From: an uncultured Methanoregulaceae archaeon
GTDB taxonomy: Archaea > Halobacteriota > Methanomicrobia > Methanomicrobiales > Methanospirillaceae
Assembly (NCBI GenBank): GCA_963717525.1
Contig: OY970343.1
Location: forward strand, 1,760,001 to 1,824,000
Reading direction: 5' to 3'
DNA length: 64,000 bases
Numbering within the stretch: the first letter of the stretch is position 1; every line of letters starts with the position of its first letter. Position numbers and translations under genes: made by a program. Positions 44,754-56,492 of this stretch are shown here, piece after piece. The notes under the pieces were generated by a model. The model worked only from the letters and a program-made list of their open reading frames with translations. It had not been told where the DNA came from and did no database searches.

Positions 44754-45644
44754 ATGGAATGGAAAAGAGACTGGGGCCTGACAACCAGAGTGTTGCTGAC
44801 AGGATTTTTGCTGTTCATCCTCTACCTCGTGTTCATGACGGTACTTGTGGTGTTCTTCCCCGGGGTCAGTATCTGGCTGATTGTCGGTCTGGCGGTAGTA
44901 ATAGGCCTCGTCCAGTATTTCTTCTCAGACAAACTGGTGCTCTGGACCACACATTCGCGCATTATAACCGATGGTGAATACCCGGAACTTCACCAGACAG
45001 TCGAGAAACTTTGCCATGAAGCCGATCTGCCCATGCCAAAGATCGCCATCATGCAGAGCCCGATGCCCAACGCGTTTGCTACCGGCCGTAGCCCGAAACA
45101 TGCGGTGGTCTGCTGCACCGATTCAATCATGCGCCTTCTGACCAAAGACGAACTTGAAGCAGGTACTCGCACACGAACTCTCCCATGTAAAAAACCGGGA
45201 CATTCTCACGATGACTATGGCCAGTTTCGTTGCAATGATCGCTTCGATAATTATGCAGAGTTTCTTCTTTTCTGCGCTCTTCGGGGGAAATAATCGCAAC
45301 AATGGAGCAGGATGGATCATAGTCTGGATAGCCTCGATTATTGTCTACGCGCTGAGTACCTGTTGATTCTTGCGCTCTCCCGCTACCGTGAGTATGCGGC
45401 TGACCGGGGCAGTGCACTCATCACCAGAAACCCCCAGGCGCTGATCTCGGCCCTGAGTAAGATCAGTGGCAGGATGGAAGTTGTTCCCCCCCAGGCAAAA
45501 GCCAAAGTTGAAAGTGCAAATGCATTCTTTATCATTCCGGCACTCACAGGAAACACTATCATGGAGCTCTTCTCCACCCATCCGCCGATGGAGAAGCGGA
45601 TTGCCGCCCTTGAAAGGATCGCGGTCGAGCTTCGCGTAACCTGA
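44754..45644 (+). CDS. htpX: Zinc metalloprotease HtpX; two compensating frameshifts (~45162, ~45360)
   Basis: PNAFATGR; HELSH in the shifted middle segment; SRYREYAAD; FSTHPP. Confidence 0.9.
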
Positions 45645-48452: not shown

Positions 48453-48686
48453 ATGGCTGCATCATGGCGTGAAGCACGAGAATCAGCCCGGGAAAAAAAC
48501 CTCCCGCAGGTATACCATGATTGCGACACGGATACCTACGGTGCCTGCCACACGGGTGAGCCGCAGGGGAGTTTTAAAAATGGCGTCTTTACCGAGCACC
48601 GCTGTATCTGTATGCCGGCACACTTATCGGCAGAAGAACTCGCGGAAAAAGAACGGAAATTCCGGGCGGAGAATCCGGACTGGTAA
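48453..48686 (+). CDS. Small hypothetical Cys/His-containing protein
   Basis: MAASWREAR...HDCD...GAC...HRCICMP...ENPDW; TTATATA upstream. Confidence 0.6.
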   Translation: MAASWREARESAREKNLPQVYHDCDTDTYGACHTGEPQGSFKNGVFTEHRCICMPAHLSAEELAEKERKFRAENPDW

Positions 48687-48740
48687 ACGGGAATTTAAAA
48701 ATAAAACCCTTTTACCACACTTTTTCGCTGAAAGATAGGT

Positions 48741-49335
48741 TTACCGCCTTTTGATCTCATCTCGGAACCGGTGGATAATATCGTACAGCATCATTCGCAG
48801 TTCAGCACCGACATCGTCCCATGATTTCGGGGATGACACGGATACGGCGGGATTGGATGCAGATGCATGGACAACGGTATCGGACTCGTCCCGGATCTTC
48901 GCCTTTGCCCAGAGATCGCAGATGATCTCGATAGTACCCGGCCAGGAGCACGATGATAAAGACTACCGGGACGATCACAAAGGAGAGCAGCCAGAAGTAA
49001 TGGTAGATGTTGTTACCGGTGGCCGAATCGACCCATTCGAAAACCCGGAGCACGAACGCAATGATGAAGACGCTGCCAATAGCCTTGATGATCGGGGCCG
49101 GCAGGTTCATCGGGAATGGGAGTGCCCCGAAGATGTCAGCGATAAAGATGATGATGCCGATGAGGATCAGCAGCCAGAAATTCAGGTTCAGGAAATCGAC
49201 GCCCGCGTGGTACAGGGGATTTGACACGTAAAAGGTCAGGATGTTTGCGAGCACGACAACGATCAGGAAACAGATGATCCCAATCATCCTTGAAACAAAA
49301 ACCCACCCGAGCGAGTGTTGCTTGTTCGGCCACAT
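48741..49335 (-). CDS. Hypothetical 4-TM membrane protein; probable frameshift near 48930
   Basis: Four hydrophobic segments; removing one base gives an amphipathic tail ...PKSWDDVGAELRMMLYDIIHRFRDEIKRR*. Confidence 0.65.
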
Positions 49336-49448
49336 GGATACTCACATCAAGTGTATTTCTTAGTATTTGTCGGCGGGGTATATAGTCCTCGTGTACCGCA
49401 CAGGGAAACGTCACAATCCCTTTATTGTGCCGGCCCAAAGATTCCAGT

Positions 49449-49818
49449 TTGCGGATCTATTTCGAGCGGTATGCACTCTACCTTCTCCGGTGACAGGCGA
49501 GCACCCCGATCCTTGCCGGTGTCGGCATCCTCCTTGAGGGCATGGGATATCACAGCCGCGATTATCGCAAACCTGATCGGCGGCCTGATCTTCTTCTGGG
49601 TTGACCCGTTCATCTTCACCTCCCAATCGACTGCAACGCAGTAGGATGTACGGGAGAATATCACCTGCGTGGACTGCGGCAGGGTCACACGGGGGTACCG
49701 GCTGGTCCGGTTCGGGGATTATGATAAGAGTAATGATCCTGTCCCCGAGTTCCGGTGCGAGGAGTGCACGAAAAAGAAAGCAGAGACGCTCCGGAGTAAG
49801 GGGATAAAAACAGCATAG
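49449..49818 (+). pseudogene. Disrupted small membrane protein with C-terminal CxxC...CxxC domain
   Basis: YALYLLR*QASTPILA (TGA 49491); frameshift ~49548; ANLIGGLIFFWVD...Q*DVRENITCVDCG (TAG 49642)...FRCEEC. Confidence 0.7.
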
Positions 49819-49929
49819 CCGGGGGGAGGCGCAGTATCCCGTACCCGGTTCCCCGGAGATATGGTTCTTTTTTGCAAACGATCAGAAAGGTGTGACAATT
49901 CGCGGACTTTTTGCATAAACAAACAACAA

Positions 49930-49945
49930 TGTATAAATATGTACA
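49930..49945 (+). promoter_or_regulatory. trp operon TATA box overlapped by TRP-box-like pair TGTATA-N4-TGTACA
   Basis: TGTATA 49930-35, TGTACA 49940-45, TATAAATA 49932-39, A-rich BRE-like sequence upstream. Confidence 0.55.
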
Positions 49946-50026
49946 ATAACAACCAAAACTAAGCGTTGTAGCCGGCAATTGAGAGAGGCGGACATTCACC
50001 CAAACGTTCCTGTCCGGAATACTTTC

Positions 50027-50047
50027 ATGAAATCCGGCTGGTGGTGA
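50027..50047 (+). other. Putative trp leader mini-ORF MKSGWW*
   Basis: ATG AAA TCC GGC TGG TGG TGA, ending 10 nt before the trpE ATG. Confidence 0.45.
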
Positions 50048-50057
50048 TGCTCTTGGG

Positions 50058-51605
50058 ATGGAGAATGATACTATTCAGACTGCACTGAACCTGAACCTTA
50101 GACTGGATGAATATCTTACCGCAGTGGCAGACCAGCCAAAGCCGCTGGTTATTCCGCTCTGTGCTGAACTACCGCTTCCACGGTGCTCGCCACAGGAAGT
50201 ATTTTTGGAGACCCGGACCGGGGCCGGCTTTCTTCTTGAATCCCTGGAAGGCAGCGAGAAGATAGCCCGGTACTCGTATGTCGGTATAGATCCCTCGTGC
50301 GTGATCACGCTGGGCCGGGAAGTGTCAGTGACCGGCAACGACGCGTTTGTCGCCATTGCCCGCGAACCCGAAGGCACGAACCCGGTAGACCGGATCCGGT
50401 CGATCCTCTCGCGATTCCATTACGTCAACCTCAGGGCCCCGCGGTTCTTCGGGGGGATGGTCGGGTACTTCTCCTACGATATCGTGCATGCACTCTTCGA
50501 CCAAGTGCCGGATCACCGGAACCTTCCGGTGCAGAAATGCCCTGACGCCAGATTCATGCTCACCAAGGACTGCATCGTCTTCGACCACCGGGACCGCAGG
50601 ATGTTTATTTTCTCCAGTCCGTTTCTGACATACGATACGGATCCGATCACGGAATACAATCGCTGTGTTGCTCATATCACAGAACTTGTCGGCAGGATCG
50701 CGTCAATCCCAAGATCCCCGGCAGCGCCGGATGCACCAGCGCTCACCGGAACAAAAATATCCAAGAAATCTCCCGCTATCACCGACAACACCGGGCGCGA
50801 AGCATTCACGCATGCGGTCAACGGAATTAAAGAGCACATCGTGGCCGGGGATATCTTTCAGGCTGTACTCTCGCGAAGGATGGAATGTGCGGTCACATCA
50901 GACCCGTTCCCCATCTACGCGGCGCTGCGGACAATCAACCCGAGCCCGTACATGTATTACCTTGATTTCGGGGACGAACAGGTGATCGGCGCAAGCCCCG
51001 AGATGCTTGTGCGGGTCGAGAAACGGCGCGTGACCACGGTCCCGATAGCCGGCACCCGGCCCCGGGGCGCCGACAGGAGCGAGGATAAACGGCTCGCGCA
51101 GGAACTGCTGCTCGACAAAAAAGAGCGGGCCGAGCATACGATGCTGGTCGACCTCGCACGAAATGATGTCGGGAGGGTCTGTAAGTTCGGGTCGGTCGAT
51201 GTCACCGAATTCATGGGCATAGAAAAATTCTCCCACGTCCAGCACATGGTTTCGACCGTGCAGGGCACGCTCATGGACCACCTCGACTGCTGCGATGCGC
51301 TCAAGTCCTGCTTCCCGGCCGGGACCGTTTCGGGTGCCCCGAAAATCCGTGCGATGCAAATCATTGGCGAAACAGAACCTGACGCACGCGGGATCTACGC
51401 GGGTGCCGTGGGTTACATCGGGTTTGACCGGAACCTCGAATTTGCCATCGCGATCCGGACCGTGAGCGTGAGAGACGGCCGGGCCTCCATTCAGGCCGGC
51501 GCCGGGATCGTTGCCGACTCGGTCCCGGAGAACGAGTGGATCGAGACCGAAAATAAGGCCGCGGCGATGATGCGGGCGATTGAACATGCAGGGGTTGTGC
51601 CATGA
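50058..51605 (+). CDS. trpE: Anthranilate synthase component I
   Basis: LLES...ARYS, NPSPYM, PIAGTRPRG, KERAEH, FPAGTVSGAPK. Confidence 0.96.
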   Translation: MENDTIQTALNLNLRLDEYLTAVADQPKPLVIPLCAELPLPRCSPQEVFLETRTGAGFLLESLEGSEKIARYSYVGIDPSCVITLGREVSVTGNDAFVAIAREPEGTNPVDRIRSILSRFHYVNLRAPRFFGGMVGYFSYDIVHALFDQVPDHRNLPVQKCPDARFMLTKDCIVFDHRDRRMFIFSSPFLTYDTDPITEYNRCVAHITELVGRIASIPRSPAAPDAPALTGTKISKKSPAITDNTGREAFTHAVNGIKEHIVAGDIFQAVLSRRMECAVTSDPFPIYAALRTINPSPYMYYLDFGDEQVIGASPEMLVRVEKRRVTTVPIAGTRPRGADRSEDKRLAQELLLDKKERAEHTMLVDLARNDVGRVCKFGSVDVTEFMGIEKFSHVQHMVSTVQGTLMDHLDCCDALKSCFPAGTVSGAPKIRAMQIIGETEPDARGIYAGAVGYIGFDRNLEFAIAIRTVSVRDGRASIQAGAGIVADSVPENEWIETENKAAAMMRAIEHAGVVP

Positions 51606-52195
51606 ACGCACCGACCGTTCTTATCGTCGACTGCTACGACAGCTTCACATTCAACCTGTACCAACAGGTCGGAAAACTCGGGGCGCGGCCCGTAGTCCTG
51701 ACCTGTGATACGCCGCTTGCGAAGCTCGAAAAAACTGCCTGCGACCGGATCATCCTCTCGCCCGGTCCCGGAACGCCGGAAGAGTCCGGGGTCTGCCTGG
51801 AGGTCATTGATACGATGAGCAAAACGATCCCAACGCTCGGGGTCTGCCTCGGCCACCAGGCCATCTGCACCGCGTTTGGCGGCCGGGTTACCCGGTCGGG
51901 GCACCTGATGCATGGCAAGACCTCGGAGATCAAAAACGACGGACGGGGCGTGTATGTGGGCCTGCCAACCCCGTTTACCGCCACCCGCTACCACTCGCTG
52001 GTTGCAGAACGGGAGACGCTCCCCTCGGAACTTGAGGTCGTGGCCGAGAGCCTCGACGATGGTTTTGTGATGGGCGTCCGGCACACGAAATACCCGATCG
52101 AGGGTGTGCAATTCCACCCGGAGAGCATCCTCTCTCCCGATGGCGATGCACTCATGAAAAATTTTCTCTTTGGATCGCGGGTGAGGAACGCATGA
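51602..52195 (+). CDS. trpG: Anthranilate synthase component II
   Basis: [34 protein letters not shown]. Confidence 0.96.
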
Positions 52196-53211
52196 CCATG
52201 AAGGAAGCCATCGCCGCTGTGGTGGAGGGACGGGACCTTACACCTGTCGAAGCAGCTGAGGTGATGAACGAGATCATGAAGGGGCAGGCAACACCGGCCC
52301 AGATCGGCGGATTTTTAATCGCGCTCCGCGTGAAAGGCGAGACGCCGGAAGAGATAGCGACGTTTGCGCGCGTCATGCGGAACCATGCGATCAGCGTAAG
52401 ACCGCGGGTGCCCGGGACGCTGGTCGATACCTGTGGCACCGGGGGCGATGGGGCGCAGACTTTCAACATCAGCACCGCTGCCGCCTTCGTTGCCGCGGGA
52501 GCCGGCATTACGGTGGTCAAGCACGGCAACCGGGGCGTGAGCAGCCGGTGCGGATCGGCAGACGTCCTTGCTGCTCTGGGTGTCGCCATCGCGGTGGACC
52601 CGGGCCGGCAGGCAGATATCATGCAGGAGACCGGGATCATCTTCCTCTTTGCGCCCAGCCACCATCCGGCCATGAAACATGTCATGGCCACACGGCAGGA
52701 TCTTGGCTGCCGGACGGTCTTTAACCTCCTTGGCCCGCTCGCAAACCCGGCAGGTGCAGATGCGCAGGTCCTGGGCGTGTACACAAAAGACCTCACCGGG
52801 CCGATCGCGGAGGTACTGCGCATTCTCGGCGTCTCCCGGGCAATGGTTGTACATGGCAGCGGCCTTGACGAGATCACGGTCACAGGCGAGACTACCGTTA
52901 CGGAGCTTGACGGTAGCCGGATACAGGAGTACACCCTGTCACCGGAGATGTTCGGATTTGCCCGGGCTGCGCCTGCCGATATTCTGGGAGGCAGCCCGGA
53001 GGAGAACGCACGCATTATCAGTGCGGTTTTTGCAGGGGAGCTGGGCCCGGCACGCGACATCGTGCTCCTGAACGCGGGAGCTGCCATCTATGTGGGCGGC
53101 CGGGCTGCAACTCTTGCAGAAGGTATCCGGCGTGCTGCCGAATCCATCGATTCCGGGAAGGCGAAAGGAAAACTGGATGCGCTCATCAGTGCGACGCGGG
53201 GTGCGTCATGA
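52192..53211 (+). CDS. trpD: Anthranilate phosphoribosyltransferase
   Basis: [23 protein letters not shown]. Confidence 0.97.
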
Positions 53212-53963
53212 TCCTTGACGAAATTGTCAACCGAACAAAAAAGCGGGTGGAGCGGCTGCCGGATACCTTCCCGGAGCCGAATGGGTTCAGCCGCACAAGC
53301 CTTGAAGCAGCCATCCGTTCTTCAGAACAGAAGAACCCGGTGATCGCCGAGATCAAGTGCGCCTCGCCCTCCGGCGGGATCATTCGCAGGAACGTGGATA
53401 TGGGAATGATGGCCGGGGTCCTCGCGAACCATGGCTGTGTCGGGATCTCGGTCCTGACCGAGCCGTATTTCTTTGGGGGCTCGGGAGCAGACATTGCCCG
53501 GGTCAAAAAGGCGGTCGGTGTGCCGGTCCTGCGGAAGGATTTTGTCATTGACCTGCGCCAGATCCCTGAGACAAAGGCGCTCGGGGCTGATGCGGTGCTC
53601 CTGATTGCCGCAGTCCTCAAGGGCCGGCTTCCTGAGTTTGTCGACGCCGTATACAATGCCGGCCTCGAACCACTCGTAGAGGTTCACACTGCAACAGAGA
53701 TCGACTGCGCCCTTGCCACTAATGCACAGATGATCGGGATCAACAACCGGGATCTTGCAACCATGACCATCGACCGGTCCACAACACGAAAACTTTCAAA
53801 CCGGCTGCGGGAAGAAAACCGGCTCATTGTTTCCGAGAGTGGGATACGGTCGGCGGACGATATCCGGGAACTCCGGCCGTACTGCGATGCATTTTTGATC
53901 GGGTCATCGATCATGGCAGACAAGAGACCCGATAAAAAACTGGAGGAGTTCTTGTGCGCATAA
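53208..53963 (+). CDS. trpC: Indole-3-glycerol phosphate synthase
   Basis: [29 protein letters not shown]. Confidence 0.96.
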
Positions 53964-54530
53964 AGATCTGCGGGATCACCCGCAAAGAAGACGCACGGTT
54001 CGCGGAGTTGGCCGGGGCTGATGCAATTGGTGTTGTCATGTTCTCCCCATCCTCGCCCCGCTCGGTGACTGAGGAAAAGGCCCGGGAAATCTTTGGCGCG
54101 CTCGGGCCGTTTGTGACCCGGGTCATTGTCACGCACACGCGATCTGATGATGATCTCAAGCGAATTCTTACGCTCCGTCCGGATGCGATCCAGATATCGC
54201 ACCCATTTGTCTTTGCTGAAGCGCCGGGTGCCCGGGTGCTCCGGGTGATCGGGCGCGGGGACGCCGGGCCTGCGGACTGCGATGCAGTGATCGTGGACGA
54301 AAGCATGGGCGCTGGCCGGCACTTCGACCGCGCGTTTGCGAAGGAGATTGTAGCAGAGATCCGCGGTGCCGGTCATCCTTGCCGGGGGGCTCACCCCGGA
54401 AAATGTCGGGGACGCGATCCGGGAGATCCGGCCCTACGCTGTCGATGTCGCAAGCGGTGTCGAAGAGAGACCGGGAATAAAGGATCACAAAAAAATCGCG
54501 GCTTTCATCGTCGCAGCACGGGTGGCATGA
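53954..54530 (+). CDS. trpF: Phosphoribosylanthranilate isomerase; +1 frameshift near 54356
   Basis: IKICGIT, SPR; shifted frame reads [13 protein letters not shown]...AVDVASGVE...KD, stop at 54530. Confidence 0.92.
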
Positions 54531-54531
54531 T

Positions 54532-55698
54532 ATGGGAGGGAAAGGACGGTTCGGGAAGTATGGGGGGCAGTACGTGCCGGAAACACTCATGAACGCACTC
54601 ATCGAACTCGAAGAGGCCTACCGGAATGCAGCGCACGACCCGGCATTTGAAAAGGAACTCGCCGCATACCAGTCGGAATACGCAGGCCGCCCGACACCGC
54701 TCACGTTCTGCGAAAACATGTCCCGGGACCTCGGTTTCAGGGTGTACCTGAAGCGCGAGGATCTTGTCCACGGCGGGTCGCACAAGCTCAACAACACGCT
54801 CGGGCAGGCACTCCTTGCAAAACGGATGGGTAAGAAACGACTGATCGCTGAGACCGGCGCCGGGCAGCACGGGGTCGCAACCGCAATTGCCGGGGCGGTG
54901 CTCGGTTTTAAAGTCGATGTCTTCATGGGCGAGGTCGACACGAAACGCCAGGCCCTCAACGTCTTCCGGATGGAACTGATGGGCGCAACAGTCCACCCGG
55001 TAAATTCCGGAACAAAAACGCTCAAGGACGCTACAAACGAGGCACTCCGCAACTGGGTGGCAAACGTAAATGACACGCACTACCTGATCGGATCGGTCGT
55101 CGGCCCGCACCCGTTCCCGACTATTGTGAGGGATTTCCAGTCGGTGATCGGGCACGAAGCCCGGGAGCAGGTCATGCGAAAAGAGGGAAGAATGCCGGAC
55201 GCCATCGTTGCCTGTGTCGGCGGGGGCTCGAACGCGATTGGTATCTTCCACCCGTTCCTTGACGATGACGTGGAGTTTATCGGCATCGAAGCGGCCGGCA
55301 AAGGACTCGATACGCCGGAGCATTCCGCAACCCTCTGCACCGGGGATCCCGGTGTGCTGCACGGCACGCTCTCGTACCTGTTGCAGGATAAAGACGGGCA
55401 GGTGCTTCCAACGCACAGCATTGCGGCCGGTCTCGATTACCCCGGCGTCGGCCCCGAGCATGCGATGCTCAAGGACTCGCACCGGGTTTCCTACCACGCG
55501 GTCCGGGACCCGGACGTGCTTTGTGCATTCCGGTACCTCTCGCGGACTGAGGGGATCATCCCGGCGCTCGAATCCTCCCACGCGGTCGCGTATGTCCTGC
55601 AAAACCGGGACCGGTTTGACAAGGGTGACGTAGTGATCATCAACCTGTCAGGCCGGGGCGACAAGGATGTTGCGGGAATTGCACCGGAGGTGGAGTGA
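54532..55698 (+). CDS. trpB: Tryptophan synthase beta chain (TrpB1)
   Basis: LKREDL...[27 protein letters not shown]. Confidence 0.98.
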
Positions 55699-56492
55699 TG
55701 GGGCGAATCGATAAAATTTTCCGGAAGAAAGGCGCAACGGCTTTTATCGGTTTTGCCGTGGCAGGGGATCCGGATAAGGAAACCTCGGTCCGTATCGCAA
55801 AGGCGCTCATCGATGGCGGGACGGACATCCTCGAACTGGGAGTTCCGTTCTCGGACCCGGTGGCAGACGGCCCGACCATCCAGCGGGCGGACGACCGGGC
55901 GCTCGCTGCAGGCACCACGCCCGATACGATCTTTGCGATCGTCCGGGATGTCAGGGCATATTCCGATATCCCGATTGTCTTTCTCACGTACTTCAACACG
56001 ATCTACCGGCGTGGCATCGACCGGTTCTACTGCGAAGCTCACGAGGCCGGCGTTGATGGCATTCTTGTGGCCGACATGCCGGTCGAAGAGTCCGGCGAGG
56101 TCATGGAGATCGCGCAGAAATATGGGATCGATCCGATCTTCCTTATCACGCGAACAACGTCTGATGAGCGCATGGATACAATCGTGCGGCGGGCGCGGGG
56201 CTATCTCTACCTCGTCTCGGTGCTTGGTGTCACGGGCGCACGAAAGGAGGTCTCTCCCGAGGCCCTCGCCCTTCTCCACAGGGTCAGGAAACATACAAAG
56301 ATTCCGCTCGCCCTCGGGTTTGGGATCTCCACACCGGATCATGTGGCAACCTGCCGGCGGGCCGGGGCAGATGGTGTAATCGTCGGGAGTGCCATTGTGG
56401 ATATTGTCGAGCGGCACCTTGGCGATCCCGATGCGATGGAGACCTCACTTCGTCGATATGTTACCGGGATGAAAGACGCAGCGGAAAAGTGA
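55695..56492 (+). CDS. trpA: Tryptophan synthase alpha chain
   Basis: [30 protein letters not shown]. Confidence 0.97.

Follow-up and report, generated by a model that had tools for sequence, protein, structure and literature searches.

A single-tryptophan-codon leader junction on the trpE start of Methanomicrobiales, probably sensing tryptophan at the ribosome

The window analysed here is a 64,000-nt stretch of contig OY970343.1 (positions 1,760,001 to 1,824,000) from an uncultured Methanoregulaceae archaeon, and carries a tryptophan biosynthesis operon headed by trpE. The start of trpE lies on a leader element that was found at 144 of 204 Methanomicrobiales trpE loci. It consists of a Shine-Dalgarno (SD) sequence followed by GTG, ATG, a Pro codon, NTG, a codon for Asp, Glu or Gly, and a single Trp codon, the UGG of which overlaps the first codon of trpE (A/C-UGG). 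This junction probably senses tryptophan at the ribosome. As the route to TrpE, a -1 frameshift at the hungry Trp codon is favoured, tentatively, on the grounds of codon usage and geometry at the overlap. If either route is true, a codon-level amino-acid sensor would operate across a whole methanogen order, and archaea would regulate biosynthesis at the ribosome. The parts of the junction in the window are:

50058..51605, + strand: trpE, anthranilate synthase component I, first gene of the operon (TIGR00564 and TIGR01820, both above cut-off)
50043..50048, + strand: SD-like GGTGAT, complementary to the 3' end of the genome's own 16S rRNA, 5 nt before leader codon -2 and 10 nt before trpE
50055..50061, + strand: proposed shift or restart site G GGA UGG; the Trp codon (50059-61) overlaps the trpE ATG (50058-60), and the G at -4 is present in 144 of 144 loci
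50044..50088, + strand: conserved-frame leader open reading frame (ORF), with the translation (V)MLLGWRMILFRLH-stop

The conserved junction

Named genome contigs supplied trpE loci of Methanomicrobiales (80 kept of 570). A search of 251 genomes matched 182 genomes; 30 loci were returned, and 100 further regions and 18 with a trpE match among 20 were also taken. The 228 loci were reduced to 204 by removing 2 fragments and 22 exact duplicates, near-duplicates possibly remaining. Named records belong to Methanoregula, Methanoculleus and Methanofollis, and the order assignment is based on these. The motif was called at a score of at least 12 of 15, and the tree was built with FastTree from 202 rows.

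A sequence-only reading of the window had proposed a Trp-codon mini-ORF, MKSGWW-stop, on the trpE ribosome-binding site. The general idea holds, but the ORF chosen is not the conserved one, which lies in the next frame and reads GTG ATG CCN NTG GA(C/A) TGG. Among the 144 motif loci GTG occurs in 134, ATG in 143, CCG, CCA or CCC in 142 and NTG in 135 (TCG in 7, other codons in 2). The codon before Trp is GAC in 72, GAA in 55, GGA in 15 and another in 2. TGG itself is fixed by the motif definition, and none of the 204 loci combined an intact 5' part of the motif with a non-Trp codon. Conservation is 31–47% at positions -22 to -17 and 89–100% at the fixed motif positions. The leader peptide has the order consensus V-M-P-[V/L/M/S]-[D/E/G]-W, followed by 0–28 codons to the stop, which comes immediately after the Trp codon in 11 loci.

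The motif was seen in all family codes sampled. Within Methanoregula 27 of 64 loci carry it, and in the rest of the order 117 of 140 do. Inspection by eye of 40 trpE upstream regions from other orders did not reveal it. Spread beyond the order was considered, since the exact pattern matched genomes of other families, and rejected: 0 of 30 fetched loci had a trp gene (tblastn). L216 is a chance occurrence of the pattern at the start of an unrelated membrane-protein gene, and L299 and L300 were rejected as trpE loci. The peptide G-D-A-G-G encoded in the trpE frame was likewise discarded as the cause of conservation: in many loci that frame runs into nearby stops, and its codon three varies at positions 1 and 2 while third positions are fixed.

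The trpE-frame codon overlapped by UGG is CTG in 72 of the 144 loci, ATG in 71 and TTG in one, a degenerate locus; GTG never occurs. Over the stretch from the upstream in-frame stop to the conserved core, 50 of the 72 CTG loci have no ATG and 30 have no ATG, GTG or TTG, and an in-frame ATG is found in 59 of the 60 motif-less loci. No passage on CUG starts in archaea was found in the available portions of PMC7531240 or PMC7261190. Of the 144 loci, 130 have an intact SD; in 11 of the remaining 14 an upstream purine run restores a duplex of -7.8 kcal/mol or better in the same register. In this genome (878 ORFs) GGTGA precedes ATG by 3–7 nt at 50 sites and by 10 nt at 2, spacings 6 and 9 being inflated in this control because the TGA is itself the in-frame stop by which the ORF is delimited in those cases. 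The SD, at 10 nt, is thus badly placed for initiation of trpE.

The leader frame appears to be translated, judging from the way it is fed. Outside the Methanoregula-like group, the TGA of a long upstream ORF overlaps the leader ATG in 41 loci, and 61 loci have their own promoter, 4 of them without a TATA anchor. In 55 of the 57 anchored loci a leader-frame ATG lies 22–42 nt after the TATA start and is open to the Trp codon (in 11 it is the motif's own ATG), as compared with 2 of 57 for a promoter-proximal ATG in the trpE frame and 0 of 57 for the third frame. The distance from this ATG to the Trp codon varies by multiples of three, and the intervening sequence is unrelated among loci. In the Methanoregula-like group the NTG two codons before Trp, 5 nt past the SD, is a candidate start (26 of 27).

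These observations bear on the proposal that the motif is a protein- or RNA-binding site, or just a weak SD with an ATG or CTG start, on which the Trp frame would arise incidentally. Invariance at several third positions indicates selection on nucleotides, and wherever G follows an ATG the next frame reads TGG (as at 249 of 878 starts). However, outside the Methanoregula-like group promoter-proximal ATGs fall in the Trp frame almost throughout, at varying multiples of three across free intervening sequence, the third base of the Pro codon varies (19 changes on the tree), and TGG is retained where ATG has turned into CTG. An incidental Trp frame is accordingly given very little weight.

Rewired loci were also seen. 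L008 and L133/L138 have one-base insertions that bring the leader ATG into frame with trpE, and L133 has lost the trpE ATG; in two further lineages a promoter-proximal ATG is now in the trpE frame. Motif-less lineages with such an ATG are L113, L118, L120, L121, L123, L125, L128 and L130; L113 retains a motif remnant within its new N-terminus. In several genera a TrpB2-like gene heads the trp operon (L064:1102-2460, L078:1081-2490 and about 40 others; identity was tested in 2). Where the TrpB2-like stop overlaps the leader ATG, the putative Trp-codon gate would thus lie between trpB2 and trpE.

The nucleotides around the Trp codon are constrained. At -1, next to UGG, 143 of 144 loci have A or C. 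GAC and GAA have been exchanged at least 16 times on the tree, and the synonymous GAT and GAG never appear, whereas 22–91% of codons in ordinary Asp/Glu columns of TrpE end in G or T (26 columns). A metagenome scan covered at least 119 loci and at least 120 matches; among the matches listed, 10 of 10 trpE loci have GAA or GAC, some from species already counted, and 49 of 110 non-trpE matches have GAT or GAG. The G at -4 is invariant though its codon changes amino acid, and no four-fold site of TrpE reaches 95% (0 of 58); this G belonged to the motif score, and an explicit filter on it dropped no locus. The G_GGA form arose twice on the tree. TTG makes up 3% of Leu codons and CTG 27%, and both Glu tRNAs are encoded in the genome.

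Routes from a stalled ribosome to TrpE

In the proposed mechanism, Methanomicrobiales would gate TrpE synthesis by a translated leader ORF that places a single Trp codon on the first trpE codon. With charged tRNA-Trp plentiful, UGG would be read, the leader frame kept and the stop reached 0–28 codons further on, so that no TrpE would be made. With tRNA-Trp scarce, the ribosome would wait with UGG in an empty A site, and the mRNA would be held by the SD, 8 nt ahead of the codon in the P site. The peptidyl-tRNA would then slip back by one base (G_GAC, G_GAA or G_GGA), the A site would show CUG or AUG, and elongation would yield a leader-TrpE fusion. Coupling through the 4-nt gene overlaps would hand the effect to trpG and onward, and TrpY repression would be layered on top at the level of transcription. 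Since a ribosome paused on UGG covers the trpE start as well as the SD, control by opening the site to a second ribosome would have the wrong sign, and the paused ribosome would therefore have to make TrpE itself. That it does so, by either route, is likely. What the sequences establish is that the element is conserved, with its frame, overlap geometry and codon constraints, that other starts are lacking and that trpY is present; leader translation, stalling, the slip and the dependence on Trp are inferred from these.

Several features can be understood if the route is a -1 shift. By the motif definition trpE stands in the -1 frame relative to the leader. The G at -4 would be fixed because the slipping peptidyl-tRNA must re-pair with it, and G_GGA, which re-pairs fully after the slip, fits this reading. 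CTG would be tolerated because it is read as Leu after the slip, no initiator being needed, and this is the codon at the 30 loci that offer no ATG, GTG or TTG. GAT would be absent because it would expose the rare TTG, and GAG presumably through failure of its tRNA to re-pair. In bacteria, -1 shifts stimulated by an SD have a spacing of 9–14 nt (PMC5009743). From the end of GGTGA to the first base of the shift site there are 7 nt, and 10 nt when counted from the equivalent GGAGG register, so that the bacterial range is reached in the latter register only. On this account, SD-assisted -1 shifting could be the ordinary way of producing anthranilate synthase in the order, with the ribosome as the Trp sensor and TrpE as a recoded leader fusion; the proposal is offered at somewhat less than even confidence.

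A number of points weigh against the shift and against the wider case for the junction. The commonest form, GAC slipping to GGA, means poor re-pairing for tRNA-Asp, and a slow A site is of greater importance to +1 shifts than to -1 shifts (PMC5009743). Neither a conserved 3' stimulatory hairpin nor a conserved excess of structure 10–50 nt downstream was found; in folding windows at 72 of the 144 loci the mean z was about -1 over the motif and near 0 just downstream, and hairpins occur near the motif in some lineages only. Half of the loci keep a true ATG at the overlap, and an NTGA-like junction equally fits re-initiation. The motif is lost in 60 of 204 loci, including 37 of 64 in Methanoregula, and its presence or absence changes about 13 times on the tree. 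The three closest relatives of the window (L083, L002, L004) are without it. A promoter-proximal in-frame ATG is found in only 9 of 38 Methanoregula-like own-promoter loci, and the TATA anchor patterns were adjusted after the sequences had been inspected. Some positions that were counted later had already entered the motif score, the loci share ancestry, and FastTree alone was used for the tree.

The second route is conditional termination and re-initiation. Here the hungry UGG would act as the UGA of an AUGA overlap, the ribosome would be released or rescued, and its small subunit would stay on the SD and restart at the overlapping AUG or CUG. The effect would have the same sign, and TrpE would start with its own Met. 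The geometry is that of the NTGA overlap, described as the commonest coupling junction (PMC12548453), and coupling at overlaps has been demonstrated in Haloferax, with a variable contribution of the SD (PMC6728339). In vitro, initiator tRNA is described as able to restart a stalled bacterial ribosome at a start close by, in dependence on an SD. ATG stands at the overlap in 71 of the 144 loci. However, a restart leaves unexplained the invariant G at -4 and the choice of codons, GTG never and TTG once as against CTG in 72 loci, and it would move the ribosome to 10 nt, off the preferred SD spacing. It is considered possible but unlikely.

Attenuation or polarity has also been weighed. In this case the position of the leader ribosome would set transcription termination, by FttA-type polarity or an RNA switch, and trpE would be started afresh at ATG or CTG after the ribosome had moved past. 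FttA is held responsible for polarity in archaea (PMC12548453), many loci allow local hairpins to be drawn, motif windows fold slightly better than shuffles, and a covarying hairpin is present in the clade of the window. However, no pairing is common to the 144 loci, and in several lineages the transcript would have only a few bases ahead of the motif, too few for a switch. The UGG-stalled ribosome would still cover SD and start, and CTG and the A/C rule would go unexplained. This explanation is improbable.

Different parts of the junction resemble known systems. The bacterial trpL attenuator (E. coli; Rfam Trp_leader) shares a short Trp-codon leader ORF before trpE and the sensing of charged tRNA-Trp by stalling, which is presumed here. 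The present leader differs in having one Trp codon, not tandem ones, which overlaps the trpE start, and no terminator or antiterminator, U tract, Rfam match or shared pairing was found. The sequence-only reading had already held, rightly, that the logic must differ from that of E. coli. The +1 frameshift of prfB (release factor 2) has a short first ORF, an internal SD and a slow A-site codon as the sensor, and yields its product only under scarcity of the factor that it senses (PMC5009743). In contrast, the present case would involve a sense UGG instead of UGA, a -1 instead of a +1 shift, an SD 8 nt instead of 3 nt from the site, and an archaeal biosynthetic operon as the target. The -1 shifts of E. 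coli dnaX and of insertion sequence (IS) elements share the direction and a 5' SD at a fixed distance. Unlike them, the junction has no X_XXY_YYZ heptamer, so that G_GAC/GAA/GGA_UGG permits single-tRNA slippage only; it has no conserved 3' hairpin, and it would be conditional on a hungry codon. AUGA termination-reinitiation (Huber et al., 2019, PMC6728339) has the same overlap geometry, with the SD within the upstream ORF. Here UGG replaces UGA, which would make the coupling conditional, the leader stop lies 0–28 codons further on, and half of the loci have CUG.

In the literature examined, archaeal trp controls comprise only the DNA-binding regulators TrpY and Tar (PMC6737238), and the archaeal -1 frameshifts listed are those of viral tail genes and magnesium chelatase (PMC5009743). 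No published report of such an archaeal Trp-codon control was found in a search that was without most subscription papers. Either route would be new as a natural control, be it a hungry-codon frameshift or a sense codon serving as a conditional stop for AUG/CUG re-initiation; a -1 shift, if shown, would be a categorically new kind. The two routes predict different N-termini of TrpE in cultured genera (Methanoculleus, Methanofollis, Methanoregula). The model would account for trpE genes without a normal start codon, and if the -1 shift is true, half of these genomes have a trpE start annotation that is wrong or missing.

Leader and promoter in this genome

The copy in the window is degenerate. 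Its motif is GTG ATG CTC TTG GGA TGG (50044-61), the start of a peptide MLLGW in an ORF that ends at 50088; it has no Pro codon and no promoter-proximal in-frame ATG, and it keeps a true trpE ATG. Possible leader starts are TTG 50053, ATG 50047 and GTG 50044. Whether such a copy still functions is put at about even odds. The leader and trpE start are identical in short-read contigs from 4 runs, 3 of which are possibly the source of this DNA. Further features of the leader and promoter are:

49930..49945, + strand: TATA-like box (49932-39) that overlaps a pair of hexamers separated by 4 nt, of which the second is TGTACA; a candidate operator for TrpY
49962..50057, + strand: predicted 5' leader of about 95 nt, its start deduced; in relatives the first ATG is mostly 29–40 nt after the TATA start
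49987..50018, + strand: worn copy of the Methanoregula-clade hairpin, the loop conserved in relatives
50027..50047, + strand: MKSGWW-stop, present in 1 of 144 loci and probably an SD by-product

The mini-ORF singled out earlier, ATG AAA TCC GGC TGG TGG TGA, does sit at 50027-50047 in a frame open from TTG 49979, and GGTGA is at 50043-47, with the trpE ATG (50058) 10 nt downstream. Its start and tandem Trp codons are not conserved, an outcome that the sequence-only reading had itself named as refuting it: TGG TGG TGA occurs in 1 of the 144 motif-bearing loci, that of this genome alone. The caution that WW-stop may be a by-product of the SD was well placed, given this count and the genomic background of TGGTGGTGA, which is found 30 times in the genome, 7 of the 30 with an in-frame ATG within 30 codons. 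No SD was found upstream of 50027. A trpL-like sensor built on MKSGWW-stop is therefore very unlikely, being conserved in just one locus and without an SD before its start, and a stall on its Trp codons would presumably cover the trpE SD and lower TrpE in starvation, which is the wrong sign. Like the TrpB2-like stop in other genera, the stop of this ORF overlaps the leader ATG (50047), so that the ORF could feed the leader in this genome. The ORF appears to be incidental, yet positioned on the conserved single-Trp leader junction.

The leader pairings proposed from the sequence all exist as strings: TCACC (49996-50000) with the SD, CCCAA (49999-50003) with TTGGG (50053-57), and the helices 49989-94/50011-16 and 49970-75/50034-39. 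An anti-SD switch does not emerge as an order-wide feature, as the highest mean pair probability around the motif is 0.25 over the 144 loci. Folding of the 101-nt leader, suggested as a check on its structure, gave z = -0.72, with 41 of 200 shuffles equally good, and five leader spans gave z from -1.1 to +1.05, none beating shuffles. A bacterial-type scan found no terminator-like site on the + strand at 49700-50200, the longest T run within 49960-50060 is 3, and an Rfam scan of 48500-51500 gave no match at E up to 5.

The helix 49989-94/50011-16 fares differently: it is not an order-wide switch, but it is what is left, in worn form, of a hairpin covarying within one clade of Methanoregula. The leader of this clade has two hairpins, the second of which covaries, with two-sided changes at 8 of 10 pairs (16 sequences; kinship inflates this) and 88% of cells paired, as against 29–56% in slid alignments. 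The window lacks the first hairpin and part of the loop of the second. The 10-pair hairpin is seen at L001:2412-2472 and 14 related loci, 30–45 nt before the SD, and has a C/A-rich conserved loop resembling the 16S anti-SD.

At the promoter, TGTACA (49940-45) stands beside the trp TATA-like box. Of the 137 trpE loci with a TATA-like start, 94 have TGTACA no more than 36 nt from it, vs 2 of 167 TATA-like sites in this genome, where the paired-hexamer form occurs twice. The TRP-box consensus by which TGTACA is taken to be a TrpY box is presumed here. A TrpY-family gene is encoded elsewhere in the genome (L301, G000:C1:798606-799106; NF053754, 220 bits, cut-off 180), and its protein has a single Trp, at residue 2. 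On the opposite strand, some 270 nt upstream of this gene, there is a tRNA-Leu gene. In this the genome resembles Methanothermobacter thermautotrophicus with its TrpY and TRP boxes (PMC6737238), but trpY is unlinked here and the leader motif is not explained by that system. Homology to TrpY is not proof of trp repression, because the T. kodakarensis homolog does not regulate trp (PMC6737238). TrpY would add a separate transcriptional repression and would not account for the leader motif.

The operon and its neighbours

The trpEGDCFBA operon spans 50058-56492 on the + strand, according to ORF coordinates and NCBIfam profiles. The genes trpE, trpD, trpB and trpA pass their own NCBIfam cut-offs, trpG clears the trpG/papA subfamily cut-off, and trpC and trpF are sub-cut-off matches. 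Stop and start overlap by 4 nt at the E/G, G/D, D/C and B/A junctions. TrpE of the 144 motif loci contains no Trp in 53, one in 86 and two in 5, some rows being perhaps truncated proteins; 0–2 Trp residues are as expected of an enzyme produced during Trp shortage.

trpF (53954-54592) appears frameshifted, its match being limited to the first 80 aa. The break is attributed to an assembly error because the contigs of all 4 short-read runs lack one base, at 54353. A membrane zinc-protease-like gene at 44754-45644, which we take to be HtpX-like, seems split across two frames, probably by an assembly indel too. Upstream, a small membrane-protein-like ORF (49315-49818) adjoins the trp promoter; a stop near 49642-44 interrupts it, and a frame with a Cys pair carries on past this stop. 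ARAGORN, with the intron search off, listed 47 tRNAs in the genome, none for Trp or Tyr and three labelled Cys; the unlisted tRNA-Trp and tRNA-Tyr genes probably contain introns.
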